DNA of 32,000 nt from SAR324 cluster bacterium (lineage in GTDB: Bacteria > SAR324 > NAC60-12), in NCBI GenBank assembly GCA_015232315.1, contig JADFZZ010000004.1:83414-115413 (forward strand). Direction: 5' to 3'. How positions within the stretch are numbered: position 1 is the first letter of the stretch; every line of letters starts with the position of its first letter. A program made the position numbers and the translations under genes. The notes beneath the pieces were generated by a model. It saw only the letters and a list, made by a program, of their open reading frames with translations, had not been told where the DNA came from and searched no databases. Shown here one piece after another: positions 80-26,843 of this stretch.

Positions 80-571
80 ATGTCAAGCTGTTCATTTGAT
101 ATTGTTTGTGAAGTCAACCTTCAGGAACTCGACAATGGGGTCAATCAGGCTAAACGGGAAATTGAAACCCGTTATGATTTTAAAGGCAGTCATTGTGAGA
201 TCGAACTTGATAAGGAAAAATCATCGGTGTTGCTGACAGCGGATGATGACATGAAGATGAAAATGGTGATTGATATTTTATTGACCAAACTCATCAAACG
301 ATCTGTTCCTGTTAAATCCATTGTTTATGGAAAGACTGAGCCTACTGGACGTTTATTGAAAAAAACATTGACCGTTCAGCAGGGACTATCCAAAGAACAG
401 TGTAAAAAAATCACAACGTGTATCAAGGATTCCAAACTCAAAGTGCAGGCACAGGTAATGGGCGAACAAGTTCGGGTTACCGGGAAAAGTAAGGATGATC
501 TTCAGCAAATCATGGGATTGTTGAAAGGAATGGAACTGGATTTTGATCTTCAGTTTACAAATTACAGATAA
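80..571 (+). CDS. yajQ: YajQ family nucleotide-binding protein
   Basis: 163-aa ORF starting at ATG 80. It has the YajQ-like N-terminus SFDIVCEVNLQELDNGVNQAKREIETRYDFKGS and C-terminus VRVTGKSKDDLQQIMGLLKG...DFDLQFTNYR. Confidence 0.95.
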   Translation: MSSCSFDIVCEVNLQELDNGVNQAKREIETRYDFKGSHCEIELDKEKSSVLLTADDDMKMKMVIDILLTKLIKRSVPVKSIVYGKTEPTGRLLKKTLTVQQGLSKEQCKKITTCIKDSKLKVQAQVMGEQVRVTGKSKDDLQQIMGLLKGMELDFDLQFTNYR

Positions 572-573
572 TT

Positions 574-2379
574 TCAGTTCATTGGCGTCTGAGTGATCTG
601 TTTCACCGCATGGATCAGATCACTTTCCTGTGTGGCTGAGAGCATTAAAAATTCCAATCCGATGGTCCATTTATTGATGTAATCTTTTTTAACGCTGTTT
701 TTCTGCCATATGACTTTGCAAATAATTTGTATGGGATCCAGTTCAATAGCATGACCATCTTTTTCTGGCAAAAATACAATTTCAGCAATTGTGGTTTCCC
801 CCACTGTTAACGGTTCTTCCAACTCCATACGCATTCCAAACCTCGAAATATCCAGAGCGATCCCGGAAATCATGTTTTGCTTCATAAACAAGCGGGCCGG
901 CGTATAGACATCAAACCTTGGCGTGCGTCGTCGTCGTTGTTGGTTGAGATAGTAACTGGTTTCTTCCACAACACCATCCCAGAAATAATCCTCAGGCGGA
1001 TAACGCAAAAAATACCGGCAGCGTTGCAAATATTCACGCGTTATCACATCATCCGGATAAATCGCTTCACATTTTTCAAATAACTTTATGGCGTCTTCAA
1101 AGTGCTGACTTTTGTAGCGAATGATCCCTTCAAATAAAAATGCTTTGGTCTGCTGCTTTTTATCATAAATTTCAGGAGGATCATGATCAAAAACCTCAAA
1201 AATTGTAACAGGTACTCCTTTTCCCCGTATTTTAACCGTATCAATTTCACGAATGGCATAATCATCATCATTGATTTCCGCATGACTGTATCCCGTGATC
1301 AGAATACCGGCTTTGTATTGTTTGGTCAGTTGTTCCAGACGGGCAGAGATATTCACATGATCGCCCACCACGGTTGAATCCATCCTGTTTATGGTACCCA
1401 ATGCGCCGACGACGACAGCACCTGTATTGATTCCCACTCCAAAATGTATAGGTGGAAATTCTTTGGAACGATGTGCATTGTGATGTTGAATGGCTCTGTG
1501 CATTTCTATAGCAGACTGAATAGCTCTGTTGACCGAATTTTCTCTATCAAACAGTGCCATGATCCCATCGCCTATAAACTTGTCAATGAAGCCCCCATGA
1601 TCAGTGATCAACGGTTCCATCATGGTGAGGTATTCATTGAGAAATTCGAAGTTTTTTCGAGGAGTCATTTGTTCTGATATGCGGGTATAGGAGCGAATAT
1701 CAGAAAATAAAATGGTCAAAACTTCTTGATGACAATAACCCGGTGTCAAAAAATCAACGCCTTCCGCATAGATACGCTGGAGAAATTGTTTGGGAACAAA
1801 CACCTGAAACATTTTTGTGGTTTTTTCCTGTTCTAGTCGTGAGGCGATCAATTCACTGTTGGTTTCTTCAAGTTTCTGTTTGGCTGTTTTTAATTCTTCA
1901 GCCGTCCTGATGGCATTATCCGCAATCATGTATTGGATAGAAAGAGCCTCATTCAGTTCCGCTGTTTTAAGAGCGAGATCTCTTCTTTGTTCATATAAAC
2001 TGACAAAAATACGGACTTTGCTTTCCAGAATATAAGGATCAAAGGGTTTAGACAGAAAATCAACGGCGCCATGTTCATAACCTTTGAAGATATAATGATC
2101 TTCACGGAAAATGGCGGTGATGAAAATGATGGGAACATTGCGGGACAGGTCATGCTCCCTGATTCTTGCCGCAATCTCAAAACCATCAAGATCCGGCATT
2201 TGGATATCCAGTAAAACCAATGCCAGATCTTGCTCATGCGCAATCTCTATCGCACGTTTTCCTGAGGATGCGGTATAAATTTGAATGTTGAGAGACTTCA
2301 GGATGGCTTGTGTCAGAAACAGGTTTTCCTCACGATCATCTACAATCAGGATTTGAGGTGCAGGATAATTTTTAGCCAT
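574..2379 (-). CDS. Response regulator with class III adenylate cyclase domain, short TPR-like segment and C-terminal PilZ domain
   Basis: REC domain (ILIVDDREENLFLTQAIL, LVLLDIQMPDLDG, FLSKPF), coiled-coil linker, CHD cyclase (ILFSDIRSYTRISEQM, GGFIDKFIGDGIMALF, MDSTVVGDHVNISARLE), TPR-like FLFEGIIRYKSQHFEDAIKLFEKCEAIYPDD, and PilZ (RRTPR = RxxxR; DISRFG = DxSxxG). Confidence 0.93.
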   Translation of the reverse strand: MAKNYPAPQILIVDDREENLFLTQAILKSLNIQIYTASSGKRAIEIAHEQDLALVLLDIQMPDLDGFEIAARIREHDLSRNVPIIFITAIFREDHYIFKGYEHGAVDFLSKPFDPYILESKVRIFVSLYEQRRDLALKTAELNEALSIQYMIADNAIRTAEELKTAKQKLEETNSELIASRLEQEKTTKMFQVFVPKQFLQRIYAEGVDFLTPGYCHQEVLTILFSDIRSYTRISEQMTPRKNFEFLNEYLTMMEPLITDHGGFIDKFIGDGIMALFDRENSVNRAIQSAIEMHRAIQHHNAHRSKEFPPIHFGVGINTGAVVVGALGTINRMDSTVVGDHVNISARLEQLTKQYKAGILITGYSHAEINDDDYAIREIDTVKIRGKGVPVTIFEVFDHDPPEIYDKKQQTKAFLFEGIIRYKSQHFEDAIKLFEKCEAIYPDDVITREYLQRCRYFLRYPPEDYFWDGVVEETSYYLNQQRRRRTPRFDVYTPARLFMKQNMISGIALDISRFGMRMELEEPLTVGETTIAEIVFLPEKDGHAIELDPIQIICKVIWQKNSVKKDYINKWTIGLEFLMLSATQESDLIHAVKQITQTPMN

Positions 2380-7057: not shown

Positions 7058-8065
7058 TTATGATTGAGTAAAATCAATCAACTGTTCCAGCTTTTTCATC
7101 GCCATGCCATTTTCCACGAGTTCTTTTGCCTGGGCGATACCCTCTTTCAATGTTGCGGTTTTTTCAGCAACATACAATGCCGCCGCGGCATTTAATATTG
7201 CGACATCTTTGGCAGTACCCAGATATTTTCCTGAAAGGATCTGGCGAATCATTTGAGCGCTTTCGTCGGCACTGTTGACACTCAATTCTTTCAGCGATCC
7301 TTTTTTCATTCCAAGATCTTCCGGAGTCAAACTATAGGTTTTGACCAGTCCATTTCTGAGTTCTGCGACATAGGTTTTGCTGGTTGTTGTTAATTCGCAT
7401 AGTCCATCCTCTCCTGTCACCACCATCGCGTTTCGGCTTCCAAGTCGCTGAAGTGCCTGGGCTAGCTTGTGAGTCCACTCCACAGAGGGAACCCCCAAAA
7501 CCTGGTCCATGGCTCCTGCTGGATTGGTAAGAGGTCCCAGAATGTTGAAAATGGTAGGTATTCCCAGTTCTTTTCGGATAGGTCCCGCAAATTTCATGGC
7601 CGGGTGATGTTTTATCGCATAACAGAAACAAATATTGGTTTGGGCAAGGCACTGTTCCACTTTTGGCAAATCAATATTGATATTCACCCCCAGTGCTTCC
7701 AGCGCTTCAGCACTGCCACTTTTGCGGGTATTGCTCCGGTTTCCGTGTTTTGCGACAACCGCACCGCCAGCCGCGGCAATAATCGCGGCGCAGGTGGATA
7801 TGTTGAACGTGCTGATTCCGTTTCCACCAGTACTACAGGTATCTACGGCATTAGCGGGGGCCTGAATGTGTGCGGACTTTTGACGCATCGCTGTTGCCGC
7901 TCCGGCAATTTCTTCTACATTTGCGCCTTTAGCTTGCAGGAGCGCTAAAAAGGCCCCCGCCTTGATTGGTGTTGCGTCTTCACTCATGATCCACTGGATC
8001 GCTTGATGCGATTCATCAAATGTTAAATCCTGCAATTTCAATAATTTTTGCAACAATTCATTCAT
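7058..8065 (-). CDS. trpD: Anthranilate phosphoribosyltransferase
   Basis: DTCSTGGNGISTFNIST, AKHGNRSNTRKSGSAEALEALG, MKFAGPIRKELGIPTIFNILGPLTNPAG are diagnostic. The likely start is MNELLQKL (8065); the ORF-track start at 8104 overlaps the upstream gene's stop. Confidence 0.97.
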   Translation of the reverse strand: MNELLQKLLKLQDLTFDESHQAIQWIMSEDATPIKAGAFLALLQAKGANVEEIAGAATAMRQKSAHIQAPANAVDTCSTGGNGISTFNISTCAAIIAAAGGAVVAKHGNRSNTRKSGSAEALEALGVNINIDLPKVEQCLAQTNICFCYAIKHHPAMKFAGPIRKELGIPTIFNILGPLTNPAGAMDQVLGVPSVEWTHKLAQALQRLGSRNAMVVTGEDGLCELTTTSKTYVAELRNGLVKTYSLTPEDLGMKKGSLKELSVNSADESAQMIRQILSGKYLGTAKDVAILNAAAALYVAEKTATLKEGIAQAKELVENGMAMKKLEQLIDFTQS

Positions 8066-8103
8066 TATTTCAGTCCTTTCTCTCTCAGGGTGTGGCTGAC
8101 TCA

Positions 8104-9378
8104 CTATTCATAAAATTTGAAATTTTTCAGTTTTTTCTTTCGTGAGCGGTCTTTCCGGGCAACGGTTCCCAAACCTTTATATTTGACATAGAGCAACAAT
8201 CGATCCAACAAATCATGCTCTTTTGTGGATAAATCCATGAACTTCAGACCATAAACCCATTGTTTATTCTGTTTTTTTCTGGTCATGATCCGTCCCCCCA
8301 GGGTCAGTGGACTGGATAGTGCTTCAGATTCAATGTTGACCCACGCCCAGGTTTTGGGTTTAATTTTGAAATGGGTCAGCAATCCCACCCCTCCCACAGA
8401 CATATCCACCAGAATGCCTTCAAAATTATCATTCAGGGTATGTCCGGAAACTGGAATATTGCAGGAATGACGTGGAGCAAATCGTTGTTCCAGGAATAGT
8501 TTACGAAAAAATATTGCATGGCTAAGCAACAATCTGGCGGATTCCTGATGAGAAATAGCGTAATTGAAATTGACCAGAAGATGATCGCCCATATGAAGAC
8601 GTGTGTCCAGTCTCACGGGAAGTCGAACAGGCCCGCTTAAGGAAGGATGGACAAAATCAACAATGGTCATTTGCTTTAGATCAACCCACTTTTCCCAGGA
8701 GCCTGTTTTGATACGTGCTTCAAAAGATAAAATACTCACATGCTCAACTGTTCCATCTACAAAAAGAATACTTTCTTCGTCTGACAACCGGCAAGTCAGG
8801 CCCGAAATAAAATTATGGATGACCCCCTGAAGATGAACATCCACCAACATGGTGCTTAGCGAATAGCGAGTGTCGGTGTTGATGGTTCCGAGATAAATAT
8901 GATAACCCAATAATGGAAGATACAACACCGCAAACAGTCCATGCAGGGCAATCAACACGCTTTTAAGTCCCGGCAAATCATGCGGACGTAAAAAATAAAG
9001 GGTGATTCCCGTAATGGACATCAGTGTAATCACGACCACTGACAAGAGTAGGAACAGCCATTGTTTCACGATCATTTTATCTGAAACGATACTTTCGCCA
9101 CCTTTACCAGTGGGATTCTGCAACACAATCAGGCTCAAAATTCCGGAACCGGTCATCCAGAAAATTCCAATGGTGATATGCCACCATCGGGTATCCCGAG
9201 CTAAAAAATCTCCCACATGGCGTAGTTCAACGATTTGAGAAATCCCCAGAGTATACAGTAACAGAATCATGGTCGCATTGAACCAGTGCAACCATCGTAT
9301 ACGGGGAGCGAATCGTGAAATGATGACAGTATCCTCAGGTGCTAACAGTTCCAGTCCGATACTTGCGGCATTTGTCAT
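8104..9378 (-). CDS. Cytochrome b561/FdnI-like di-haem membrane protein fused to a C-terminal PilZ domain
   Basis: Transmembrane segments with histidines at RIRWLHWFNA, RWWHITIGIFW, VLIALHGLFA and LLGYHIYLG. C-terminal PilZ motifs: RFAPR (RxxxR) and DMSVGG (DxSxxG). Confidence 0.85.
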   Translation of the reverse strand: MTNAASIGLELLAPEDTVIISRFAPRIRWLHWFNATMILLLYTLGISQIVELRHVGDFLARDTRWWHITIGIFWMTGSGILSLIVLQNPTGKGGESIVSDKMIVKQWLFLLLSVVVITLMSITGITLYFLRPHDLPGLKSVLIALHGLFAVLYLPLLGYHIYLGTINTDTRYSLSTMLVDVHLQGVIHNFISGLTCRLSDEESILFVDGTVEHVSILSFEARIKTGSWEKWVDLKQMTIVDFVHPSLSGPVRLPVRLDTRLHMGDHLLVNFNYAISHQESARLLLSHAIFFRKLFLEQRFAPRHSCNIPVSGHTLNDNFEGILVDMSVGGVGLLTHFKIKPKTWAWVNIESEALSSPLTLGGRIMTRKKQNKQWVYGLKFMDLSTKEHDLLDRLLLYVKYKGLGTVARKDRSRKKKLKNFKFYE

Positions 9379-9399: not shown

Positions 9400-9960
9400 C
9401 TACAGATATTCGCCTGTGGCAACATTGTAATATTTTGAATATTCTTTACCGGTTTTGACATGACAGTCCACACACCGGACATCAGTATTATCCCGTTTCA
9501 TATCAAAATCGCCCTCATCCATCAATTGGTGTGCGTAACGGACATCAGCCTTGCTGTGATTATGACAACTAATACATTGAACTTTTCGATACGTGGTCCG
9601 GTTGGTGATATCTTGGTGGCATTCCTTGCACTTCAACGTGAAATGATATTTTTTTCCTTCGAGCACCAGAACTTTACTGTGATATAAGGCCGCAGTGGAT
9701 TGTTTCCATCCAAAAAAACTGGGTTGATGGCACAAATTACAGGTTCCCAAATCATTATGGGCTTCCGGACGATTGGTATGGCAACTGTCACAACGGCGCT
9801 GAATGCCGTAAATATTCAGTTTCAGGTCGCCCAACAATCCGCGCCCATGCCCAAACAGTCCAACGTCAAAAAATTGCTCATAGGGCGTTTCTCTTACGCG
9901 GGGATCAGTGCATGAAATGAGCAAAAAGCAGATTCCAATTATTCCAGTGATACGAAGCAT
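9400..9960 (-). CDS. Pentahaem c-type cytochrome, predicted lipoprotein
   Basis: Five CxxCH motifs (CDSCH, CNLCH, CKECH, CISCH, CVDCH). The start at 9960 gives MLRITGIIGICFLLISC-TDPR, a signal peptide with lipobox. Confidence 0.88.
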   Translation of the reverse strand: MLRITGIIGICFLLISCTDPRVRETPYEQFFDVGLFGHGRGLLGDLKLNIYGIQRRCDSCHTNRPEAHNDLGTCNLCHQPSFFGWKQSTAALYHSKVLVLEGKKYHFTLKCKECHQDITNRTTYRKVQCISCHNHSKADVRYAHQLMDEGDFDMKRDNTDVRCVDCHVKTGKEYSKYYNVATGEYL

Positions 9961-10015: not shown

Positions 10016-10378
10016 TCAGGATTCTTCAACTTCCTGTTCCTCATCAGAATGTACATGATCCAGGACGGTAATCAAAATCAGGGAAAACAGTGCTCCTGAT
10101 ACAAAGCCTTGTCGAACAGGCCACCAATCGTGGACAAGAAACAGGTCCGATAACGCCAGAAACACAGGGACTAATCCAATTGCCACATACACCGCATTAG
10201 GGTTGCTTATTCGAACCTTGAACCGGATAAACCGGATCAAAAATGGAATGACAACGCCCCAAACAATGCCATATCCCCAGTCTGTGTTAAATCCTCCGGG
10301 AGACGGGATGCTGAAGATTAATAGAATCAGACAGGTCAGGTTGTAAGACGAAATATGAAATTTACCAATGGGAATCAT
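10016..10378 (-). CDS. Small hypothetical membrane protein
   Basis: 120-aa ORF with about three to four hydrophobic segments and an acidic C-terminus (HSDEEQEVEES). Same strand as, and immediately upstream of, the cytochrome genes. Confidence 0.7.
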   Translation of the reverse strand: MIPIGKFHISSYNLTCLILLIFSIPSPGGFNTDWGYGIVWGVVIPFLIRFIRFKVRISNPNAVYVAIGLVPVFLALSDLFLVHDWWPVRQGFVSGALFSLILITVLDHVHSDEEQEVEES

Positions 10379-10472: not shown

Positions 10473-10820
10473 CTATGATTCCTGGATATCGCTCAAATAA
10501 TAGCGCCACGCCGGAGCATGTTGCTCAATGTGGTGGATCAGTTTTTCAGATATTTCACGTAACAATGCGACCTGATCATCAGGATCCGGCAGATTGTAGG
10601 GTTGTATTCGTATCTGGATAGCTCCTCCAGCGGGTGTTTCTTGATTTTGTGTAACTTTAAGGAGTAATTCCTCTGGTTGAACAATATAATAGCAGGGGTG
10701 AGAATCGATGCTCTGTCCTGTTTGAACAGGTTTTCCAGATGTGGACAGCACCTCAACCAAAAATTCAAACACTTTCCGGGAAGAATCTGAATTGTCTAAA
10801 TATAAATCCCTAAACTTCAT
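10473..10820 (-). CDS. Hypothetical 115-aa protein
   Basis: Its start codon overlaps the kdsB stop by 4 nt (ATGA), consistent with translational coupling. No family recognised. Confidence 0.65.
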   Translation of the reverse strand: MKFRDLYLDNSDSSRKVFEFLVEVLSTSGKPVQTGQSIDSHPCYYIVQPEELLLKVTQNQETPAGGAIQIRIQPYNLPDPDDQVALLREISEKLIHHIEQHAPAWRYYLSDIQES

Positions 10821-12063: not shown

Positions 12064-13095
12064 ATGATAAAAAAAATCGCAATTACCTCAATGGCTGCTT
12101 TTTTGAGTCTGTCTGTGGCAAATGCTAAATGTCTGGACCAACAGGAAACCAAATTATGTTTGGGTGGTGAAGTAGCCGGCGCATTACAAATCAGTTCCAG
12201 TGATAATGGCACAACATCATCATCTCATATTGCTACTCCTGGAAGAGCTGAGTTGACTGCGAATATTGTGTTACCAGAAAACAATGGCTGGCAAACAGAA
12301 GCCTATTATACCATTAGCTCTGACTCTAATGAAAAGCTGGATGACTATCGGATCAAGGTTTCTTCCGGTAATGTGTCAATTCTGGCTGGACGAGATGGCA
12401 TTGGCTACGTCAAACAAGGACAAAACTATGTGACAGAAATGGGATCAACCACTGTCGGAACCTATGGTGATGGAACGCTGCTCAATGATAACAATCTGGC
12501 GCTGGAATATAGAGTCAATGAGAATTTCGCAATGCGTGGTGGCTTGAGTTATGAGGCCTATGAAGCCGTTGCGGCACAGGCCGAAGTCCTCGATAGTACG
12601 ACGGGTGCCGTGATCACTCCGGCTCAGGATGCTATAAATGCTGATGCCATGGCCTTGGCGCTGGTGGCTGAAGCTAACGTTGCCGGCTTGGGATTTGGAC
12701 TTGAATTTGAAACCAAATCTTATGGCGAACCTGCGGATGCTCCAACAGGGTTTACCGCACCTGATGGGCAAACCACATTGACTGTTGGTCTGCAATATAC
12801 AATTGCTGACAAGTACACTCCCTACCTGAACTATGGATCTTTCACACAGAATGCTGATGTGACTGAAACAGGAATTGATTTTGGTGTTGACGCCAATCTG
12901 GATGTGGTCGGACTGACCGTTGGTATGGAAAATTATGACAGTGGAATTGATGGTGCTGACACAACAAGCAGCATATACCTGGGCGTGATCGCTGGTGTGT
13001 TTGGTGATACACAGGTTGGATTTCAATATCAAACCAGCACTACGGGTGATATTTCATCCAGTGAAACAATGGTTGAGTTATATAGCACATTCTAA
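12064..13095 (+). CDS. Outer-membrane porin-like beta-barrel protein
   Basis: Signal peptide MIKKIAITSMAAFLSLSVANA followed by alternating beta-strand-like segments typical of Gram-negative porins. Ends in an aromatic residue (VELYSTF). Confidence 0.82.
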   Translation: MIKKIAITSMAAFLSLSVANAKCLDQQETKLCLGGEVAGALQISSSDNGTTSSSHIATPGRAELTANIVLPENNGWQTEAYYTISSDSNEKLDDYRIKVSSGNVSILAGRDGIGYVKQGQNYVTEMGSTTVGTYGDGTLLNDNNLALEYRVNENFAMRGGLSYEAYEAVAAQAEVLDSTTGAVITPAQDAINADAMALALVAEANVAGLGFGLEFETKSYGEPADAPTGFTAPDGQTTLTVGLQYTIADKYTPYLNYGSFTQNADVTETGIDFGVDANLDVVGLTVGMENYDSGIDGADTTSSIYLGVIAGVFGDTQVGFQYQTSTTGDISSSETMVELYSTF

Positions 13096-16933: not shown

Positions 16934-19027
16934 ATGGCTTTATTTACTAAAATCAGCCCCTTGGCTCATGCGCCGTCAGGCATGACGCATGAGGGGCGGC
17001 AACTGGTGTTCAGTCTCTATGTGAAAGATGCTGAAAAGATTGAGTATCTGTTTTATCCCAACCCCTATCAAATGAAAATGGGGCAGCAATACTCCCGTCT
17101 GGAATGTGTAGAGTTGAACCTGAAAACATTCAGCGTTGGCAATCTTTGGAATTGGAAAGGGGAGTTGACCGCTGACTTTGACGAAAATTATGTGTTTGGC
17201 GTTGTCATCCGTATTTGGAAAATCGATCCTCAAACCGGAAAAGCCATTCCACATCTGGTCATTGACCCCTATTCCAGAGAAACCTCGGGTGGAGAACAAT
17301 GGCGACAATCAGAAGGCTTTGAAATTGATGCTAAAACGCTGAAGATTAAAAGAATTCCAAGAACATCTGTTCACGACCCATATGTGATCAGACGTTTGCC
17401 TGTATTACGCTATTATCACTACAATGTGGATCGACCTGCTCACCCACGAATACCGTTATCAGAATCCATTATTTATGAATGCCATGTCAGAGGTTTTACA
17501 AACAGTCCAACTTCAAGGGTTTCTGATCCAAAATATCGTGGCACCTATAAAGGTTTGACCGAGTGTATTCCCTATTTTCTGGAATTGGGAGTTACAACCA
17601 TTGAACTTCTGCCGATCTATGATTTTGATGAAAATGAAAACGTCAATGTTTCGCCCTTCACACGAGAACCGTTGATCAATTATTGGGGCTATTCACCGTT
17701 ATTGTTTCTGGCGCCCAAACAAAGCTATGCCTATAACATGGAGGATCCCATCTCCGAATTCAAGGAAATGATTGACGCCTTTCATGAGGCTGGCCTGGAA
17801 GTGATTCTGGATGTGGTTTACAACCATACCGCAGAACAGGGATCCGATGGTCCTATCGATCATTTTCGCTGGCTGGATGAGGAAACCTACTACATTTATC
17901 ACAAAACAAATCTGGCTAATTATTCAGGTTGCGGAAATACCCTGAATTGTTCGCATCCTGTGGTGAAACGACTGATTTTGCAAAGCCTTCGTTATTGGGT
18001 GAATGAAATCGGGGTTGATGGTTTCAGGTTTGATCTGGCTTCTATCTTGGATAGAAATCATGAAGGTCAGATGAATGCGTTCCCGTATCTCCTGTGGGAA
18101 ATTAAAAATGACCCGGCACTGTCGGCAGGCATCAAGGTCATTGCCGAACCCTGGGATAGTGGCGGGGGCTATCAACTCGGGCACATTGCCTATCATGCCT
18201 GCTGGGCAGAATGGAATGATCGTTTTCGTAATACGGTTCGAAAAGCTGTAAAGGGTGAGGATGGTATGATCTGGGGCATCATGAACAGTCTTGCCGGAAG
18301 TCCTGATGTTTATCAGTCGATTCAGAACGGACGTGATTTCAGCATCAATTTTCTCACGGCGCATGATGGTATGACCATGTGGGATCTTGTGTCCTACAAC
18401 CACAAGCATAATGAGGAAAATGGAGAAGAAAACCGTGATGGTACCAATGATAACTTTTCCTACAATTGCGGAATAGAGGGTCCAACGAAAGATATGGCCA
18501 TCAATAACCTCCGTTGGAAAAAAATGCGGATGATGCATTTAATGCTACAAATTTCAAATGGAACTCCCATGTTGCTTGGAGGCGATGAACTGGCACGCAC
18601 GCAGTTGGGAAACAACAATCTCTATTGCATTGATTCCCCCTTGAATTGGGTAGATTGGCGATTGGTGCAGAAAAATGTCCATTTGTTGCGCTTTGTCAAG
18701 CAGGCCATTGCCATCAGAAAACAATATCGGGATTTATTGTTTTCCACTGAAAGTCATTATTCCTGGTTTAACTCCGAAGGTGGTGAAGCGGATTATAGTT
18801 CTTATATTCGCACACTGGTCTGGCATATTTCACATCCCAGTCATCCTAAAAAAGCCATGTGCGTTTTGCTTAATTTTTTTCATGGTGCCATTGATTTCAA
18901 ATTTCCGGAGAGTGGACAGTGGTTTTGTGTCATGGATACAAAACAGGATTCAAATGTCATGGGCCGGATTATGAATAATATTGTCAAGGTTGCCGGTTTT
19001 TCAATACAGATTTACCGGCGTGTATGA
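16934..19027 (+). CDS. glgX: Glycogen debranching enzyme / isoamylase (GH13)
   Basis: ESIIYECHVRGFT, VILDVVYNHTAEQG, VDGFRFDLASILDR (nucleophile), IAEPWD (acid/base), INFLTAHDGMTMWDLVSYNHKHN, GTPMLLGGDELARTQLGNNN. Confidence 0.93.
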   Translation: MALFTKISPLAHAPSGMTHEGRQLVFSLYVKDAEKIEYLFYPNPYQMKMGQQYSRLECVELNLKTFSVGNLWNWKGELTADFDENYVFGVVIRIWKIDPQTGKAIPHLVIDPYSRETSGGEQWRQSEGFEIDAKTLKIKRIPRTSVHDPYVIRRLPVLRYYHYNVDRPAHPRIPLSESIIYECHVRGFTNSPTSRVSDPKYRGTYKGLTECIPYFLELGVTTIELLPIYDFDENENVNVSPFTREPLINYWGYSPLLFLAPKQSYAYNMEDPISEFKEMIDAFHEAGLEVILDVVYNHTAEQGSDGPIDHFRWLDEETYYIYHKTNLANYSGCGNTLNCSHPVVKRLILQSLRYWVNEIGVDGFRFDLASILDRNHEGQMNAFPYLLWEIKNDPALSAGIKVIAEPWDSGGGYQLGHIAYHACWAEWNDRFRNTVRKAVKGEDGMIWGIMNSLAGSPDVYQSIQNGRDFSINFLTAHDGMTMWDLVSYNHKHNEENGEENRDGTNDNFSYNCGIEGPTKDMAINNLRWKKMRMMHLMLQISNGTPMLLGGDELARTQLGNNNLYCIDSPLNWVDWRLVQKNVHLLRFVKQAIAIRKQYRDLLFSTESHYSWFNSEGGEADYSSYIRTLVWHISHPSHPKKAMCVLLNFFHGAIDFKFPESGQWFCVMDTKQDSNVMGRIMNNIVKVAGFSIQIYRRV

Positions 19028-19086
19028 GTTATGAACGGACCTTTGTCCTAACAGGAGTCCATCCTATAACATGAAAGGAAACTGAG

Positions 19087-20310
19087 ATGAATGTACTGAG
19101 CATGATACTGGCGGGAGGAGAGGGAACCCGGTTGTATCCACTAACGATTGACAGAGCCAAACCGTCCGTCCCTATTGGCGGAAATTACCGGATTATTGAT
19201 TTTGTGTTGAATAATTTCATGAATTCCGGAGTTCTGAAAATGTATGTACTGACCCAGTTCAAATCGCACTCACTGATGCGCCATTTACGACTGGGATGGA
19301 GAATTTCCGGTTTGACCCGCACATTCATTGACCCCATTCCCGCCCAGATGCAGACCGGAAAGAAATGGTATGAGGGCACGGCAGACGCTATTTATCAGAA
19401 TATCAACCTGATCAAGGATGAAGACCCTGAACTGGTGTGTATCTTTGGCGGCGATCACATCTACAAGATGGATATACAGCAAATGATCAAATTCCATCAA
19501 AAGAAAAACGCTGTGATGACTGTTGCGGCGATCCCGGTGCCAATACGTGATGCCCATCATTTCGGCGTGATTGAGGTTGATGACGATTGGAAAATGATCG
19601 GCTTTCAGGAAAAACCCAAAGAAAATCCCAAAACCATTCCGGGTGACCCTGACCATGTGCTGGCTTCCATGGGAAATTATGTGTTCAATACCAAAGAGTT
19701 GGTGGAAGAATTGATGGAAGACGCACAAAATGTTGATTCTGACCATGATTTTGGTAAAAATATCATTCCGCACCTATATCCACAGGGCGGCGTTTATGTT
19801 TATAACTTTCTGGAAAATGATATTCCGGGCATCAGTGAAAAGGAAAGAGGGTATTGGCGTGATGTAGGAACCATTGATGCTTATTGGGAAGCCAACATGG
19901 ATTTTATTCAGGTTGACCCCGTTTTTAATCTGTATAATCATAAGTGGCCACTGAATACATACAACCCTCCTTATCCTCCAGCAAAATTTGTGCATTTCAG
20001 CGAGATACGAACAGGACATGCTATCAATTCCATGGTGGCAACTGGAACCATCATCAGCGGCGCGATGGTCGAACAGTGCGTCATCAGTTATAATGTCAGA
20101 ATTCATAGTTTCTGTCATGTCAGTCAGTCGGTGATCATGGATAATGTGCAGATCGGCAGAGGCGCTCAGATTCAACGAGCTATTATTGACAAAGATACAA
20201 TCATCGCACCTGGTACGAGAATCGGTTACGATCTTGAAGCTGACCGAAAGCGGTTTCATGTCTCGCCCAATGGCATTGTTGTTATTCCCAAAGGAGTTCG
20301 CGTTGAGTAA
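19087..20310 (+). CDS. glgC: Glucose-1-phosphate adenylyltransferase
   Basis: ILAGGEGTRLYPLTIDRAKPSVPIGGNYRIIDFVLNN, GTADAIYQN, FGGDHIYKMD, YWRDVGTIDAYWEANM. Confidence 0.97.
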   Translation: MNVLSMILAGGEGTRLYPLTIDRAKPSVPIGGNYRIIDFVLNNFMNSGVLKMYVLTQFKSHSLMRHLRLGWRISGLTRTFIDPIPAQMQTGKKWYEGTADAIYQNINLIKDEDPELVCIFGGDHIYKMDIQQMIKFHQKKNAVMTVAAIPVPIRDAHHFGVIEVDDDWKMIGFQEKPKENPKTIPGDPDHVLASMGNYVFNTKELVEELMEDAQNVDSDHDFGKNIIPHLYPQGGVYVYNFLENDIPGISEKERGYWRDVGTIDAYWEANMDFIQVDPVFNLYNHKWPLNTYNPPYPPAKFVHFSEIRTGHAINSMVATGTIISGAMVEQCVISYNVRIHSFCHVSQSVIMDNVQIGRGAQIQRAIIDKDTIIAPGTRIGYDLEADRKRFHVSPNGIVVIPKGVRVE

Positions 20311-21781
20311 AAAATATAAAATTATCTTCACTATCTCTGAATGTAATGGATTTGCCAAGACTGGAGGTCTTGCGGATGTCGGAATGTCACTGCCACTTGC
20401 TCTCAAGGAACACGGGCATGATGTCAGGATTGTTATTCCATTTTACCGTGGTGTCTCCAGAAACTATAACACGATGACTGCTGTTCATTCCCTCGGTGTT
20501 CCGATGGGGGACCATGAGGCATGGTGTTCCGTACGTTATCTGATCGAAGAAGGCGTTCCTGTTTATTTTATTGAGCATAATGGATTTTTCGATCGGGATC
20601 GTATCTACGATGATGGAAACTATGAATATGGTGATAACGCCCTGCGGTTTGGCTTTCTCTCCCGTGCGGTGTTGCAATTATGCAAAGTTCTCCATTTCAT
20701 GCCGGATATCATTCACTGCAATGACTGGCAGACAGCAATGACACCCTATTATCTCAAGGAATATGAGCGCGATAATTATTTTTTGAGCAAAACCGCATCG
20801 GTTCTGACCATCCACAATGCGGCATTCCAGGGCAAATTCTGGGGTGGCTTTGCAGGGCCACTGGCTATCGCCCACAAAGATATGGTGTCAGACTGCTTTG
20901 AAGATTTCGGCATGATTAATTTTCTGAAGGGCGGTATTGCCTATGCCGACAAGATCAACGCAGTGAGTCCAGGTTATGCTGAAGAATTGACGACCTATGT
21001 GGGAAGTCATGGATTGCATGACTCATTCATGAGACGGCAACAGGATTTCAGCGGAATCCTCAATGGTTGCGATTATCATATCTGGGATCCTGAAATTGAT
21101 CATCTGATTCCTGCTCAATTCAGTCTCGATGACTTGAGCGGCAAAAAACTCTGCAAAAAAATGCTTCAGAAAAGTTTTAATCTTCCTCAGCTTTCTCACA
21201 CACCCGTGATCGGAATTGTCAGCCGATTGACCCAGCAGAAAGGCTTTGATTATACCCTGTCTGCGATGAGGGATATTCTGATTAATAATGATGTTCAGGT
21301 AGTGATCCTGGGCGCAGGCGAATCCTGGATTCAGGATGCCCTGCATGGCCTGGCCTGGGAATTTCCTGAAAAGTGTGGCGTGACGATCCGCTACAGTGAG
21401 GAAGTGGCCCATTATATCGAAGCCGGCAGCGATATGTTTTTAATGCCTTCTTTATTTGAACCCTGTGGACTGAATCAGATGTACAGTTTGAAATATGGCA
21501 CCTTGCCCATTGTTCGGGCTGTCGGCGGATTAAAAAACACAGTGGAACATTATAACATCCTCGATGGCAGTGGAACAGGGTTTGTGTTCCAGTTGCCAAC
21601 GAGCGGCGATGTGGTTCAGTGTGTGAACTTTGCCCTGGAAACCTATCATAAGCGCCCCACTCATTTCCAGAAAATGATACATCAGGCCATGCAACAACAC
21701 TTTGATTGGCGCAGTTCAACCATTAAATATGAAGAACTCTATGAAAGTGCGATTAAAAAACGTCAATCAGGGTCCCGGTAA
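20303..21781 (+). CDS. glgA: Glycogen synthase (ADP-glucose)
   Basis: ISECNGFAKTGGLADVGMSLPLAL, ILNGCDYHIWDPEIDHLIP, GIVSRLTQQKGFD, FLMPSLFEPCGLNQMYSLKYGTLPIVRAVGGLKNTV. Inferred TTG start at 20303 preceded by AAGGAG at 20291-20296. The longer ORF-track start at 20144 would run inside glgC. Confidence 0.94.
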   Translation: MSKKYKIIFTISECNGFAKTGGLADVGMSLPLALKEHGHDVRIVIPFYRGVSRNYNTMTAVHSLGVPMGDHEAWCSVRYLIEEGVPVYFIEHNGFFDRDRIYDDGNYEYGDNALRFGFLSRAVLQLCKVLHFMPDIIHCNDWQTAMTPYYLKEYERDNYFLSKTASVLTIHNAAFQGKFWGGFAGPLAIAHKDMVSDCFEDFGMINFLKGGIAYADKINAVSPGYAEELTTYVGSHGLHDSFMRRQQDFSGILNGCDYHIWDPEIDHLIPAQFSLDDLSGKKLCKKMLQKSFNLPQLSHTPVIGIVSRLTQQKGFDYTLSAMRDILINNDVQVVILGAGESWIQDALHGLAWEFPEKCGVTIRYSEEVAHYIEAGSDMFLMPSLFEPCGLNQMYSLKYGTLPIVRAVGGLKNTVEHYNILDGSGTGFVFQLPTSGDVVQCVNFALETYHKRPTHFQKMIHQAMQQHFDWRSSTIKYEELYESAIKKRQSGSR

Positions 21782-21853
21782 AACGGCTTCATTACCCCCT
21801 TGCCAGTTTTAACTTGTTATTTTGCTCTGCAAAGCCAATACAAAGCCATTCCT

Positions 21854-21877
21854 GAGCCTGTCTAGCAGAACAGGCTC
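21854..21877 (+). terminator. Intercistronic hairpin between glgA and glgB
   Basis: GAGCCTGT-CTAGCAGA-ACAGGCTC: perfect 8-bp stem, no strong U-tract. Confidence 0.35.
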
Positions 21878-21968
21878 TATCCAGCAACAGAATCAGTTCC
21901 TTCTTGATTAACGCATAGTTTCTCTTTCCATATTTCACATAAACTCATTTCCTTACAAGGTAGCGGTT

Positions 21969-24185
21969 ATGTCACGTATAAAATTATCGGACGCAGAAAA
22001 AGATGCTTTGGTTGCAGCTAATTTCCAAACACCACGATCAGTATTAGGTTTTCATGAAGTAAAAAGAACCACTCAACCACCGGTCTGGGTAATTCGGGTA
22101 CTGGAACATGACGCTGCTTCGATTCAAGTGTTGTGGGAGGAGCAGGAACCTCTGAGCATGGAAAAAATTCATGATGGGGGATTGTTCGAACTGGTCATGG
22201 CACCCCTGAAAGAACTGACCCCCTATAAATTAAAAATTACTTATGTCAATGGCGTTGAAGTGTTACGGAACGATCCCTATTATTTCACACCCCAGTTGAC
22301 AGAATATGACTGTTATCTGTTCAATCAGGGAAATCACCATCAGATCTACAGAAAACTGGGATCACACCCCACAAACATCGAAGGCGTGGACGGTGTATTA
22401 TTCGCGGTTTGGGCACCCAATGCCCAGCGGGTGAGTGTTGTGGGCGATTTTAATTTATGGGATGGCCGTAAAAATCCGATGCATCTGGTTGGACATTCAG
22501 GAATCTGGGAAGTATTCATCCCTCATGTGAAGCAAGGCGCTTTCTACAAATATGAGATCAAGGACAGACACGGAAGTATCCGTCTGAAAACAGACCCGTA
22601 TTGTGTGGCAATGGAGCAACGACCCTCCACGGCATCCATGGTCTATGATCTCGAGGGACATCAATGGAATGACCGTGGTTGGCTTGATCACAGAAAAAAC
22701 AGCAATATTTACAAGGAACCTGTCAGTATTTATGAAGTACATCTGGGTTCATGGAGAAGGGTACCCCATGAAGAAAACCGGTTTCTGACATATCGTGAAG
22801 CCGCTGATCAATTGATTCCGTATGTCAAGGATATGGGATACACCCACATTGAACTTCTGCCCGTTGCGGAACATCCGCTGGATGCCTCATGGGGCTATCA
22901 GGTTATCGGTTTTTTTGCCGTAACATCAAGGTTTGGAACACCTCATGATTTTATGTATTTCGTGGATCGGTGTCATCAGGAAGGTATCGGTGTGCTCGTT
23001 GATTGGGTTCCCGGACATTTCCCCAAGGATGAAACCGGTCTCGTCTATTTTGATGGAACGCATCTGTATGAACATGAGGATACCCGTAAAGGTGAACACC
23101 TGGAATGGGGAACTCTGGTTTTTAATTATGGCCGTCATGAAGTATCCAATTTTCTAATCTCAAATGCTTTGTTCTGGTTTGATGTTTACCATATTGATGG
23201 AATCCGGGTCGATGCCGTTGCCTCCATGCTTTATCTGGATTATGGCCGGAAAGAAGGGGAATGGCTTCCTAACAAATATGGTGGAAAAGAAAATGTGGAC
23301 GCGATTGATTTCATGCGGCGTCTGAATGAAGTGCTGTTCAGCTATCATCAGGGTATTTTGACTGTGGCTGAAGAATCAACCTCATGGACTGGAGTGACTC
23401 ATCCCACTTACACAGGAGGACTCGGGTTCAACTTCAAATGGAATATGGGGTGGATGAATGACACGTTGCGATATATGTCCAAAACCCCGGTCTACCGTAA
23501 ATATGATCATCATCTGATCACTTTTTCTCTCATGTATGCCTTCTCTGAAAACTTCATTCTGCCGATTTCGCATGATGAAGTGGTTCATGGAAAATCTTCG
23601 CTTCTCAGCAAAATGCCAGGTGATGCCTGGCAGCAAAGAGCCAATTTCCGGCTGTATCTGTTTTTCCAGATGGCACATCCCGGAAAACAGTTATTGTTCA
23701 TGGGGTCCGAGTTTGGTCAATGGCTCGAATGGAGCGAAGCACGAAGTCTTGACTGGCACTTGCTGGAATTCCACGAACATCGACAGTTGCAGGACTTTTG
23801 CCGCGAAAACAACTGGTTCTATCGCCGATATCCCACGCTGTACACCAATGATTTCAGTTGGAAAGGTTTTGAATGGATTGATCTGCATGATAATGACAAC
23901 AGCGTGCTTTCCTTTTTAAGACGAGGCGACGAAAACACTCAGGACCCACCCATCATTTTTGTGATAAACGCAACACCCGTTCCCAGAAACCAGTACATGA
24001 TCGGTGTCCCTGACAGTGGACTCTACCATAAAATTTTTGACACGGATTCTCCCCGTTTTGGTGGAAGTGGTTACAACAGGCAGGATACCATTCATAGCGG
24101 TTCACTGGAGTGGCAGGGTCGCCCATACTCACTTTGTCTCGATCTTCCCCCTCTGGCTGGAGTCGCCTTTAGTTTGAAACAATAA
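21969..24185 (+). CDS. glgB: 1,4-alpha-glucan branching enzyme
   Basis: VWAPNAQRVSVVGDFNLWDGRKNPM, YTHIELLPVAEHPLDASWGYQVIGFFAVTSRFGTP, GIRVDAVASMLYLDY, LTVAEESTSWTGVTHP, LPISHDEVVHGKSSL. Confidence 0.97.
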   Translation: MSRIKLSDAEKDALVAANFQTPRSVLGFHEVKRTTQPPVWVIRVLEHDAASIQVLWEEQEPLSMEKIHDGGLFELVMAPLKELTPYKLKITYVNGVEVLRNDPYYFTPQLTEYDCYLFNQGNHHQIYRKLGSHPTNIEGVDGVLFAVWAPNAQRVSVVGDFNLWDGRKNPMHLVGHSGIWEVFIPHVKQGAFYKYEIKDRHGSIRLKTDPYCVAMEQRPSTASMVYDLEGHQWNDRGWLDHRKNSNIYKEPVSIYEVHLGSWRRVPHEENRFLTYREAADQLIPYVKDMGYTHIELLPVAEHPLDASWGYQVIGFFAVTSRFGTPHDFMYFVDRCHQEGIGVLVDWVPGHFPKDETGLVYFDGTHLYEHEDTRKGEHLEWGTLVFNYGRHEVSNFLISNALFWFDVYHIDGIRVDAVASMLYLDYGRKEGEWLPNKYGGKENVDAIDFMRRLNEVLFSYHQGILTVAEESTSWTGVTHPTYTGGLGFNFKWNMGWMNDTLRYMSKTPVYRKYDHHLITFSLMYAFSENFILPISHDEVVHGKSSLLSKMPGDAWQQRANFRLYLFFQMAHPGKQLLFMGSEFGQWLEWSEARSLDWHLLEFHEHRQLQDFCRENNWFYRRYPTLYTNDFSWKGFEWIDLHDNDNSVLSFLRRGDENTQDPPIIFVINATPVPRNQYMIGVPDSGLYHKIFDTDSPRFGGSGYNRQDTIHSGSLEWQGRPYSLCLDLPPLAGVAFSLKQ

Positions 24186-24196
24186 GTGATTGAAGT

Positions 24197-24225
24197 GAAA
24201 TAATTGATAATTTGAAAATTATTTC
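24197..24225 (+). other. AT-rich intercistronic inverted repeat between glgB and glgP
   Basis: GAAATAATT...AATTATTTC: perfect 9-bp arms with an 11-nt loop. Confidence 0.3.
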
Positions 24226-24338
24226 TTTGCTTCCCGAATTTATTTTGCTAAGGGAAATTCAGGACAACTAACACAGATGGATCCATGTGAGGTCCATTGA
24301 CCTTATTCCCAAGTGTATAAAACAGTTTGAGGAGGACA

Positions 24339-26843
24339 ATGTCAGCACAAGAAACTAACAAATTATGGCAACACATTGCGGGTTACCGCAAGATGGACAA
24401 AGACTCTTTCATTGAGTCAATCGCGAATCACCTGGAATTTTCCCTGTGTAAAAACCGTTACACTGTAGATAACTTTGATATTTACTACAGCTTGGCTCTT
24501 TCAGTGAGAGACCGGATGGTGGAACTCTGGAATGATACGCAGCAGACCTACCACAATGAAAATGCCAAACGAGTTTATTATTTATCCCTGGAATATCTGA
24601 TGGGACGCAGTTTGTCCAACAGTCTGATCAATCTGGGGATCTATGATACTTGCAAACAGGCTCTTGCGGAAATTGGCTATGACATCAACGATATTGAAGA
24701 ACTGGAGCATGATGCCGGACTTGGCAACGGTGGATTAGGCCGCTTGGCCGCCTGTTTCCTGGATTCGATGGCAACCTTGCAGTTGCCGGCCTATGGTTAC
24801 GGAATTCGCTATGAATACGGAATTTTCAATCAGAAAATCGAAAATTGTGAGCAGGTCGAGCATCCGGACAACTGGTTGAGGGATGGTTACCCGTGGGAAA
24901 TTCCACGCTGGGACATGGTTTTTCCTGTTCAGTTCTTCGGGCGGGTGCATGAATATGTGGATTCCAACGGAAAAAAACGCTATGAACTGAGGGACACCCA
25001 GGACGTTATGGCAATGGCGTATGATGTGCCGATTCCCGGCTTCAAAAACCATACAGTCAATAATTTACGCCTCTGGTCAGCTCGCCCCACCAAGGAATTT
25101 GATTTCCACATGTTCAATAAAGGCGATTATTTCAAAGCCGTTGAAGAAGAACAGAAAAGTGAGACTCTTTCTAAAGTACTGTATCCCAACGACAAGGGCT
25201 TTGCAGGCAAAGAACTGCGTTTGAAGCAGCAGTTTTTCTTTGTTTCAGCCTCACTTCAGGATCTCATCCGCCGTTATAAAACAGACAATCAGTCTTTTGA
25301 CAAATTCCCGGATCAGGTGGCCATTCAATTGAATGACACCCATCCATCGATTGCTGTTCCGGAATTGATGCGATTGCTGATTGATATTGAAGGACTGGAA
25401 TGGGATACCGCATGGGACATCACCAAAAAAGTCTTTGCCTATACCAACCATACTGTTTTACCTGAAGCTCTTGAAAGATGGCCTCTCGACATGCTTGGCA
25501 ACCTTCTGCCACGACAATTGCAGATCATTTATCTGATCAACCATAATTTCCTTCAGGAAGTTCGGAAGCAGTTTCCAGGCGATGAGTCATTGATTGGCCG
25601 GGTTTCTCTGGTGAGTGAGAGTGGTGGTCGTCAAATCATCATGCCTCATCTGGCAATTGTTGGCAGTCACGCTGTAAACGGGGTTTCCGCATTGCACACT
25701 GAACTGTTGAAAACCACGGTCCTCAAAGATTTTTACGCCATTTATCCTGAAAAATTTCAGAATAAAACCAATGGCATCACTCCTCGACGCTGGTTGCGTG
25801 AATGCAATCAGGAGTTGTCAGCGCTGATCACCAGTAAAATTGGTGAAGGCTGGGTGACCAATCTGGACGAACTGAAAAAATTGATTCCGTTGGCGGATGA
25901 CAAAAATTTTCAGAAAGCCTGGCAGAATGTCAAACTGACCAAAAAGAAACAGTTTGCCCAATGGCTCAAGGATAATAAAAATATTGAGATCAATCCTAAT
26001 TCAATGTTTGATGTTCAAATCAAACGGATTCATGAATATAAACGGCAATTGCTCAATATTCTGCACGTTATCACCATGTATTCCCGAATCATCAGTAATC
26101 CGAATGGCAAGCATGTCCCTCGGACGGTGATTTTAGGCGGAAAAGCGGCTCCGGGCTATTACATGGCCAAGTTGATGATTCAACTGGCGAATGATGTGGC
26201 ACGTACCATCAATAACAATCCTGCGGTTGGTGATAAACTGCGAGTCGTCTTTGTGGAAAACTATGGCGTGTCTCTTGCCGAAAAAATCATGCCGGCTACC
26301 GAACTCTCCCAGCATATTTCCACGGCGGGAACAGAAGCGTCCGGAACAGGAAACATGAAGTTCTGCCTCAATGGAGCGATCATCATTGGTACTCTGGACG
26401 GGGCGAATATTGAAATCATGGAGGAAGTGGGTGAGGAGAATACATTCATCTTTGGATTAAAAACTCCGGAAGTGATGGCACTTCAGGCTCAGGGCTATAA
26501 TCCAAGAGTGTATTACCAGGCTCATGAAGAACTTCAAAAAGCCCTGGAAATGATCAACACCGGTTATTTCAACCGGAATGATCCTCATTTATACAATGAC
26601 ATCTACAACTCGCTGGTATTTGATGATCAGTATCTGCTGTTGGCGGATTACGCGAGCTATATCGCCTGTCAGGAAAAAGTCTCTGAGACTTACAGTGATC
26701 AGGCAAAGTGGACGCGGATGTCGATTCTGAATACAGCCAATATGGGTAAATTTTCCAGTGATCGGACCATTGATGAATATGCAAAGGACATCTGGGATGT
26801 GAAACCTGTCAAAATTCGACCTGTTGGTCAGAAAATTCGTTAA
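24339..26843 (+). CDS. glgP: Glycogen/alpha-glucan phosphorylase
   Basis: YYLSLEYLMGRSLSNSLINLG, ELEHDAGLGNGGLGRLAACFLDSMATL, VQIKRIHEYKRQLLN, PATELSQHISTAGTEASGTGNMKFCLNGAIIIGTLDGANIEI. Start MSAQETN at 24339 behind GAGGAGG. Confidence 0.97.
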   Translation: MSAQETNKLWQHIAGYRKMDKDSFIESIANHLEFSLCKNRYTVDNFDIYYSLALSVRDRMVELWNDTQQTYHNENAKRVYYLSLEYLMGRSLSNSLINLGIYDTCKQALAEIGYDINDIEELEHDAGLGNGGLGRLAACFLDSMATLQLPAYGYGIRYEYGIFNQKIENCEQVEHPDNWLRDGYPWEIPRWDMVFPVQFFGRVHEYVDSNGKKRYELRDTQDVMAMAYDVPIPGFKNHTVNNLRLWSARPTKEFDFHMFNKGDYFKAVEEEQKSETLSKVLYPNDKGFAGKELRLKQQFFFVSASLQDLIRRYKTDNQSFDKFPDQVAIQLNDTHPSIAVPELMRLLIDIEGLEWDTAWDITKKVFAYTNHTVLPEALERWPLDMLGNLLPRQLQIIYLINHNFLQEVRKQFPGDESLIGRVSLVSESGGRQIIMPHLAIVGSHAVNGVSALHTELLKTTVLKDFYAIYPEKFQNKTNGITPRRWLRECNQELSALITSKIGEGWVTNLDELKKLIPLADDKNFQKAWQNVKLTKKKQFAQWLKDNKNIEINPNSMFDVQIKRIHEYKRQLLNILHVITMYSRIISNPNGKHVPRTVILGGKAAPGYYMAKLMIQLANDVARTINNNPAVGDKLRVVFVENYGVSLAEKIMPATELSQHISTAGTEASGTGNMKFCLNGAIIIGTLDGANIEIMEEVGEENTFIFGLKTPEVMALQAQGYNPRVYYQAHEELQKALEMINTGYFNRNDPHLYNDIYNSLVFDDQYLLLADYASYIACQEKVSETYSDQAKWTRMSILNTANMGKFSSDRTIDEYAKDIWDVKPVKIRPVGQKIR

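Follow-up and report, generated by a model that had tools for sequence, protein, structure and literature searches.

A predicted di-haem cytochrome b fused to a putative YcgR-like c-di-GMP receptor module and paired with a pentahaem cytochrome c in SAR324 and Oceanospirillales

We describe a protein from a SAR324 cluster bacterium in which a membrane-embedded, predicted cytochrome b is joined to a putative receptor module for the second messenger cyclic di-GMP (c-di-GMP). Its gene lies on contig JADFZZ010000004.1 (assembly GCA_015232315.1), within a stretch of 32,000 nucleotides that was analysed as a whole (hereafter, the window), and the protein is referred to as CytB-PilZ. The window also matches contig JADGBI010000074.1 (assembly GCA_015231535.1). 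We hold with high confidence that it has the architecture of an FdnI/b561-type di-haem cytochrome b followed by a PilZ receptor bearing the c-di-GMP motifs. As to function, we propose that CytB-PilZ would supply the membrane subunit of a small oxidoreductase of the bc type, acting between quinone and cytochrome c and controlled allosterically by c-di-GMP, a reading to which we assign a probability of roughly 0.55. The features needed for the argument are the following:

8104..9378, minus strand: CytB-PilZN-PilZ gene, 424 amino acids, ATG start (from the list of open reading frames, ORFs)
8845..9312, minus strand: predicted di-haem cytochrome b domain, residues 23-178 (PF01292, hhalign to an FdnI-type profile, model helices)
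9286..9288, minus strand: codon of His31, predicted cytoplasmic-side haem ligand, aligned with FdnI His18
9178..9180, minus strand: codon of His67, predicted periplasmic-side haem ligand, aligned with FdnI His57
8941..8943, minus strand: codon of His146, predicted periplasmic-side haem ligand, aligned with FdnI His155
8899..8901, minus strand: codon of His160, predicted cytoplasmic-side haem ligand, aligned with FdnI His169
8560..8838, minus strand: degenerate PilZ-like (PilZN-type) beta-barrel, residues ~181-273 (model strands, Foldseek, motif remnant)
8491..8550, minus strand: linker helices, residues 277-296, QESARLLLSHAIFFRKLFLE, running straight into RxxxR (conservation, model)
8194..8490, minus strand: canonical PilZ domain, residues 297-395 (PF07238, family profile, Foldseek)
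8470..8484, minus strand: PilZ RxxxR motif, R299-F-A-P-R303, aligned to the RxxxR of Alg44
8389..8406, minus strand: PilZ DxSxxG motif, D325-M-S-V-G-G330, aligned to DLSAGG of Alg44
9400..9960, minus strand: pentahaem c-type cytochrome, 186 amino acids (lipoprotein signal LLISC, five CxxCH motifs, six further histidines)

The 424-residue product is a 100% match to the NCBI entry 'MAG: PilZ domain-containing protein [SAR324 cluster bacterium]' and is made up of three parts, i.e. a four-helix di-haem cytochrome b, a degenerate PilZN-like beta-barrel and a canonical PilZ domain. A first-pass annotation of the window had proposed a b-type cytochrome fused to a cytoplasmic PilZ domain from short motifs, all of which are found in the ORF: RWLHW (residues 28-32, with H31), RWWHI (64-68, H67), ALHG (144-147, H146), GYHIY (158-162, H160), DMSVGG (325-330) and RFAPR. 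The last of these is present twice; the copy at residues 22-26 (9301..9315, minus strand) is part of the N-terminal motif of the cytochrome b, and only that at residues 299-303 is the RxxxR of PilZ. The fusion itself stands, with Pfam matches for both domains and the motifs kept across the family. A chance origin of the observation can be dismissed because the four histidines are invariant in 20 of 20 relatives and RxxxR is kept. Besides, an AlphaFold2 model computed from 23 sequences (mean predicted local distance difference test score, pLDDT, of 81.3) has four transmembrane (TM) helices, followed by two barrels and a helix at the C-terminus; a run with two sequences reached a pLDDT of only 37 and was discarded.

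For the N-terminal half, a hydropathy scan of the window protein shows hydrophobic segments, and the model has four long helices (residues 25-53, 64-87, 100-129 and 136-165). This region matches Ni_hydr_CYTB (PF01292, 'prokaryotic cytochrome b561') at 31.7 bits against a cut-off of 30.1, over positions 2-177 of the 179 in the Pfam model, and the same family is matched by all 20 relatives possessing the N-terminus, with a best E-value of 3.3e-16. It is in these 20 that H31, H67, H146 and H160 are invariant. When the N-terminus of the family was compared by profile-profile alignment (hhalign) with an FdnI-type profile, built from Escherichia coli FdnI (a sequence confirmed against PDB 1KQF chain C) together with three clear-cut PF01292 proteins, the match had a probability of 98.9% (E 2.2e-17, 161 columns). 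The alignment pairs the four histidines, in the order given, with FdnI His18, His57, His155 and His169, which are the ligands of the two haems in the FdnI structure published by Jormakka et al. (2002), and the 14-residue spacing between His146 and His160 is the same in the fourth TM helix (TM4) of FdnI. Both the cytochrome b similarity claimed earlier for this half and the retention of its histidines in homologues are thereby upheld. The four N-terminal helices are thus assigned to a di-haem cytochrome b of the FdnI/HydC type, in which haem binding is predicted. Both ends of this cytochrome b part would be cytoplasmic, judging from the homology to FdnI and the need to place PilZ in the cytoplasm.

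The gene directly upstream, on which the first-pass annotation was silent, encodes the pentahaem cytochrome c (9400..9960). It ends 21 nt before the start of CytB-PilZ on the same strand, and its 186-residue product has weak Pfam matches to cytochrome c3/c7. A homologue of 40-59% identity lies immediately upstream of CytB-PilZ in 15 of 16 distinct loci, counting those that were retrieved via CytB-PilZ and have upstream DNA, with an overlap of 4 bp between the pair at locus L003. The cytochrome c family, for its part, comprises 12 clusters; three of its members were looked up, and CytB-PilZ adjoins the cytochrome c, on its downstream side, in all four distinct loci that these yielded. Since the adjacency is reciprocal, holding in both directions of retrieval, the two genes are an obligate pair.

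The cytoplasmic half had been described as a single PilZ domain. A canonical domain is indeed there (PF07238, E 1.2e-13, 51.7 bits against a cut-off of 22.5, residues 297-395) and is matched by 21 of 23 family sequences (best E 7.1e-19), and the family PilZ profile also recognises the crystal-structure sequences of the PilZ domains of Alg44 (E 4.6e-4) and BcsA; what had been overlooked is the degenerate barrel that precedes it (~181-273). The strands of the model form two beta-barrels (~181-273 and 304-380), separated by a helical hairpin (277-296, with helices at 277-285 and 288-296) and followed by a C-terminal helix (385-409). Among structures in the PDB, the best Foldseek matches are two-barrel receptors with c-di-GMP bound, namely PlzA (7mie, E 4.6e-8), VCA0042, MrkH, MotI/DgrA, YcgR and PP4397, with alignments of 220-243 columns (E 5e-8 to 1e-6), and the single PilZ domains of BcsA, Alg44 and MapZ follow after these. 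Within the hairpin, conservation is complete or almost complete at L284, L285, F290, F291, L294, F295 and L296, and QESARLLLSHAIFFRKLFLEQR, just ahead of RxxxR, is the best-conserved stretch of the entire protein. The first barrel retains a remnant of the form V-x-(D/E)-I-S/N-x-x-G/R-F, e.g. VVDISLRRFRV in relative P0005 and VEHVSILSFEA in the window protein, and is devoid of RxxxR. It gave no Pfam match, YcgR_N (PF07317) and PilZNR (PF12945) being absent at E <= 1 for the window protein and at E <= 0.01 for the 23 members, and we therefore describe it as YcgR-like in fold and not as a member of either family. According to the model, the cytoplasmic half would thus be a YcgR-like two-barrel module, not a lone PilZ domain, in which RxxxR occupies the linker between the barrels. 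Both c-di-GMP motifs noted earlier in the C-terminus are confirmed; as for their retention in homologues, RxxxR is kept in all relatives that extend to that position, apart from the truncated P0006, whereas the second motif takes the form D/N/S-x-S/G/C-x-G-G across the family and is DxGxxG in the largest sub-clade.

The family is very small: billions of proteins yielded some 20 sequence clusters. An exhaustive search of 1.84 billion representative proteins with a hidden Markov model (HMM) recovered eight that carry both the cytochrome part and the cytoplasmic module (two of them truncated) and four additional C-terminal fragments. All remaining matches, at E 1e-9 to 1e-3, are PilZ-only or cytochrome-b-only, the best of the latter at about E 1e-5 or weaker. 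No close relative of the cytochrome b part without PilZ was found among these representatives, so the fusion looks old and monophyletic. Ten of the weak matches, i.e. the nine longest PilZ-only proteins and the cytochrome-b-only P0033, were checked as candidates for independent fusions, and none qualified; REC-PilZ, GGDEF-PilZ, TPR-PilZ, GYF-PilZ and similar arrangements were found instead. A word-indexed search of 5.8 billion clusters returned 14 full-length clusters, all annotated with PF01292 and PF07238, two of which bear the JGI name 'cytochrome b subunit of formate dehydrogenase'. The hosts are SAR324 and Oceanospirillales (Bermanella, Oleispira, Saccharospirillaceae), and the GTDB species representatives with the gene are Bermanella, Oleispira, a Saccharospirillaceae bacterium and 'Gammaproteobacteria bacterium 45_16_T64'. 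TARA Oceans scaffolds carry the relative most similar to the protein of the window (48-52% identity). The family as a whole leans towards uncultivated organisms.

In nearly all relatives, a gene of the cytochrome c' family (PF01322) lies next to CytB-PilZ, at 4448..5286 in L003 and at equivalent places in L001, L006-L018, L021-L023 and L026. Most of these genes are paired with one for an uncharacterised secreted protein of ~111-135 residues (p119), the pair being divergent from the cytochrome c gene. At L024, the cytochrome c' gene (1326..1850) is instead convergent with and downstream of CytB-PilZ, and L020 has just a short, convergent downstream fragment resembling cytochrome c'. Cytochrome c' is a class II family of c-type cytochromes that bind nitric oxide (NO) and carbon monoxide (CO), and one may speculate that this neighbour gives the system of most relatives a role in handling these gases. 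A literature search for a published operon link between cytochrome c' and cytochrome b561 was uninformative; a link of this kind presumably exists in Rhodobacter, and we did not use it as evidence.

How might such a protein work? PilZ domains serve as c-di-GMP inputs to the proteins they are fused to, as in BcsA, Alg44 and YcgR. The first-pass annotation went on to suggest that c-di-GMP directly gates transmembrane electron flow, and this part of its proposal remains an inference. It has become more plausible because of the obligate pentahaem partner and because the receptor is attached to a helix with two of the haem ligands: TM4, which carries one ligand for each haem, reaches the two-barrel module after ~15 residues. 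Under the proposed mechanism, the pentahaem cytochrome c would dock on the periplasmic face and exchange electrons with the outer haem, while quinone or quinol would be the partner of the inner haem, as it is in FdnI and in the Cbc complexes of Geobacter. Binding of c-di-GMP to RxxxR and DxSxxG would close the two barrels onto each other, as it does in VCA0042, PlzA and YcgR, and the movement could pass through the conserved linker helices, the short tether and TM4 to the cytoplasmic haem/quinone site. Altered access to this site, or an altered potential, would then turn the flow of electrons on or off. For most relatives, the probable client would be the periplasmic cytochrome c' encoded alongside; this step does not apply to the window, where the gene is absent. 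Stated in full, the proposal is that c-di-GMP, once bound to the PilZN-PilZ module, would directly switch the passage of electrons across the membrane between quinones and the periplasmic pentahaem cytochrome c, and that in the Oceanospirillales relatives CytB-PilZ would feed or drain the NO-binding cytochrome c'; we put this forward tentatively, as something short of probable.

Several observations weigh against a c-di-GMP-controlled oxidoreductase. The PF01292 score of the window protein exceeds the cut-off by just 1.6 bits, and a sequence search of solved structures, run with the whole protein and with the N-terminal family profile, returned no cytochrome b. From the quinone site of FdnI, conservation is limited to a glutamine (Q106, equivalent to FdnI Q113) and the histidine ligand (H160, equivalent to H169), and the residue corresponding to FdnI Asn110 is hydrophobic. 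The main Oceanospirillales clade, which is the largest sub-clade, has DIGxGG and hence DxGxxG instead of DxSxxG; this serine-to-glycine change is a caveat for c-di-GMP binding in that clade, not for the window protein. One relative, P0005 at L025 (Logan SRR11190876, 3903..6242; 33% identity), has no cytochrome c nearby, there being no CxxCH motif within 7 kb of its CytB-PilZ, and this is the sole locus to break the pairing. Furthermore, neither cytochrome c' nor p119, which accompany most relatives, has a homologue in the window. Lastly, the parts found would suit electron flow in either direction and regulation of either sign.

The locus that breaks the pairing also provides part of the case for a different reading, in which the cytochrome b, together with the cytochrome c, would sense how reduced the quinone pool or the periplasm is, or would merely anchor the protein in the membrane, and the YcgR-like module would be the output that binds another protein, such as the flagellar switch or stator, under c-di-GMP. 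The protein would then integrate redox state and c-di-GMP without gating electron flow. At L025, a stand-alone fliM immediately precedes CytB-PilZ in the same orientation, which hints at a YcgR-like partner-binding role, and in L003-L005 a gene for a methyl-accepting chemotaxis protein is found two genes downstream; the cytoplasmic half is, moreover, structurally nearest to YcgR-type receptors, which bind partner proteins. However, linkage to fliM is seen once in ~20 loci, the sister locus L026 has the standard cytochrome module, and no flagellar or chemotaxis gene lies near the window gene. The middle barrel lacks a match to either the PilZN (YcgR_N) or the PilZNR family of Pfam, and a pure anchor would need neither four invariant haem ligands nor an obligate pentahaem partner. 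We therefore regard this reading as unlikely.

Less probable again is that the PilZ module no longer binds c-di-GMP and acts as a structural or adaptor scaffold of an ordinary bc-type quinone oxidoreductase, comparable to the non-binding PilZ proteins of xanthomonads. The departures from the second motif (DIGxGG in the main Oceanospirillales clade, NLSFGG and SLSVGG in one member each) would agree with such a loss, as would the clear loss of motifs from the middle barrel and the presence of non-binding PilZ structures (3ph1, 3rqa) among the Foldseek matches. Yet every member that reaches the position, bar the truncated one, has RxxxR, the aspartate and the two glycines of the second motif are nearly invariant, and the window protein has both canonical motifs at the typical spacing of 22 residues. 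HMM scores are solid (down to E 7.1e-19), and conservation of this kind at 30-40% identity is typical of a ligand site, which makes a non-binding module improbable to our minds. That the membrane part only resembles a cytochrome b, being a haem-free four-helix anchor that tethers a PilZ receptor devoid of redox chemistry, would suit the borderline Pfam score, the failure to match a solved cytochrome b and the bare NCBI annotation as 'PilZ domain-containing protein', but is very hard to reconcile with the hhalign match that aligns all four FdnI haem ligands, the invariance of the histidines in 20 of 20 relatives, the much stronger PF01292 scores of other members (3.3e-16) and the obligate linkage to a pentahaem cytochrome c.

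Upstream of the pair, two further genes of the window are possible accessories:

10016..10378, minus strand: 120-residue small membrane protein, possible accessory, without a Pfam family
10473..10820, minus strand: 115-residue protein, possible accessory, without a Pfam or NCBIfam family

Copies of both (65% and 41% identical, respectively) adjoin the cytochrome c/CytB-PilZ pair on TARA scaffold L019, at 1095..1975 and on the opposite strand, and the 120-residue protein is not present in the Oceanospirillales loci. Both may be lineage-specific accessory genes. In the Oceanospirillales loci (L003, at 7366..8409, as well as L006, L007, L021 and L023), CytB-PilZ is directly followed by a gene for an outer-membrane porin of the Porin_4 family. 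The combination of Porin_4 with a lipoprotein multihaem cytochrome loosely recalls porin-cytochrome conduits; Porin_4 is not present in the window. Downstream of the window gene, the longest ORF for trpD (anthranilate phosphoribosyltransferase; 7058..8104, minus strand) has a GTG start that overlaps the stop codon of CytB-PilZ by one base. The trpD product given by NCBI is shorter, at 335 residues, and co-transcription with the cytochrome genes is possible. With regard to regulatory elements, no c-di-GMP riboswitch or other Rfam element was found in the window and no FNR-type box in the intergenic promoter regions, and promoter and terminator signals were not above shuffled expectation.

Elsewhere in the window, a 601-residue protein (574..2379, minus strand) combines a receiver, a class III adenylate/guanylate cyclase (PF00211) and a C-terminal PilZ domain (E 8.9e-11) with intact motifs (RRRRTPR, DISRFG). 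This second unusual PilZ fusion suggests c-di-GMP control of cyclic mononucleotide synthesis. A DUF520/YajQ-family protein is encoded at 80..571 on the plus strand (E 8.5e-62). Some members of that family are reported to bind c-di-GMP; should this hold, the first 9.4 kb of the window would contain three putative c-di-GMP effectors. Besides, there is an ordinary glycogen cluster at 16934..26843 on the plus strand (alpha-amylase-family enzyme, glucose-1-phosphate adenylyltransferase, glycogen synthase, branching enzyme and glycogen phosphorylase), and two ORFs, of 864 residues at 27849..30443 (minus strand) and of 343 residues at 12064..13095 (plus strand), have no significant Pfam family.

c-di-GMP has established roles in the control of motility, secretion, polysaccharide synthesis and transcription. 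In the open-access literature, we found no report of its acting directly on a haem-containing electron-transfer protein, nor any description of PilZ joined to a cytochrome b561, a b-type cytochrome, Ni_hydr_CYTB or quinol electron transfer, which agrees with the earlier remark that no characterised example was at hand; the PilZ-domain survey of Galperin and Chou does not mention cytochromes. Both domain families are known already, and so is the control of a host protein by its fused PilZ domain (BcsA, Alg44). What appears to be new is their combination, in which a haem-containing subunit for electron transfer bears a c-di-GMP receptor and has a dedicated cytochrome c partner. If the proposed gating is correct, CytB-PilZ would be the first respiratory electron-transfer protein to be gated by a second messenger; it would add a layer of post-translational control to bacterial respiration and the handling of redox stress, link the switch between biofilm and planktonic life to bioenergetics and offer a natural design for ligand-gated electron conduits. 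In the Oceanospirillales relatives, c-di-GMP signalling, on which NO sensors are known to act, would in addition be tied to a periplasmic electron path for NO handling. Together with one small cytochrome c, the protein is a compact system in which to ask whether a nucleotide second messenger allosterically tunes quinone-linked electron flow. Were the gating to prove false, the protein would still add a new branch to the cytochromes b of the FdnI family, and it would still be a novel means of localising a c-di-GMP receptor.

Among known systems, the membrane part is closest to FdnI, the gamma subunit of E. coli formate dehydrogenase-N (1KQF_C), and its kin HydC/HyaC/PhsC, which have four TM helices and the same four histidine columns. 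FdnI and CytB-PilZ also have in common an N-terminal 'RF..R..HW' motif and, at the end of TM4, 'H.YLA....TR.SL..M'. In both the FdnI/HydC group and CytB-PilZ, a periplasmic redox partner is encoded upstream, which is the iron-sulphur (Fe-S) subunit of a molybdo- or NiFe enzyme in the former and a pentahaem lipoprotein cytochrome c in the latter. FdnI ends in a short C-terminal cytoplasmic helix, whereas CytB-PilZ continues into the PilZN-PilZ module of ~245 residues; the Asn110 of the FdnI quinone site is not conserved, and the likeness to FdnI is detectable by profile methods alone.

CbcL and CbcBA of Geobacter are quinone oxidoreductases in which a di-haem cytochrome b and a multihaem cytochrome c are fused or adjacent (PMC6295460; doi 10.1101/2021.04.15.440034). 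They resemble the CytB-PilZ pair in architecture: a di-haem b like that of FdnI and HydC goes together with a multihaem c in the periplasm. The haem counts differ (seven or nine in the Cbc cytochromes, five in the CytB-PilZ partner), and the hosts of CytB-PilZ, SAR324 and Oceanospirillales, are not known as metal reducers. No Cbc protein has been reported with a nucleotide second-messenger domain, and CbcBA is regulated transcriptionally, by BccR.

The cytoplasmic half shares its layout of a PilZN-like barrel, an RxxxR linker and a PilZ barrel with YcgR, MotI/DgrA, PlzA, VCA0042/PlzD, PP4397 and MrkH. Receptors of the YcgR type are soluble proteins whose targets are the flagellar motor or DNA, while the module of CytB-PilZ is covalently joined to a predicted haem-binding membrane domain; it further differs from them in that its first barrel matches none of the PilZN families of Pfam and that RxxxR is preceded by an additional, strongly conserved hairpin of helices. 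In carrying a terminal PilZ domain on a membrane protein, CytB-PilZ is like BcsA and Alg44, and the principle, i.e. allosteric control upon binding of c-di-GMP, would be the same. The membrane parts are not homologous, and where BcsA and Alg44 control the synthesis or secretion of polysaccharides, the activity under control in CytB-PilZ would be electron transfer.

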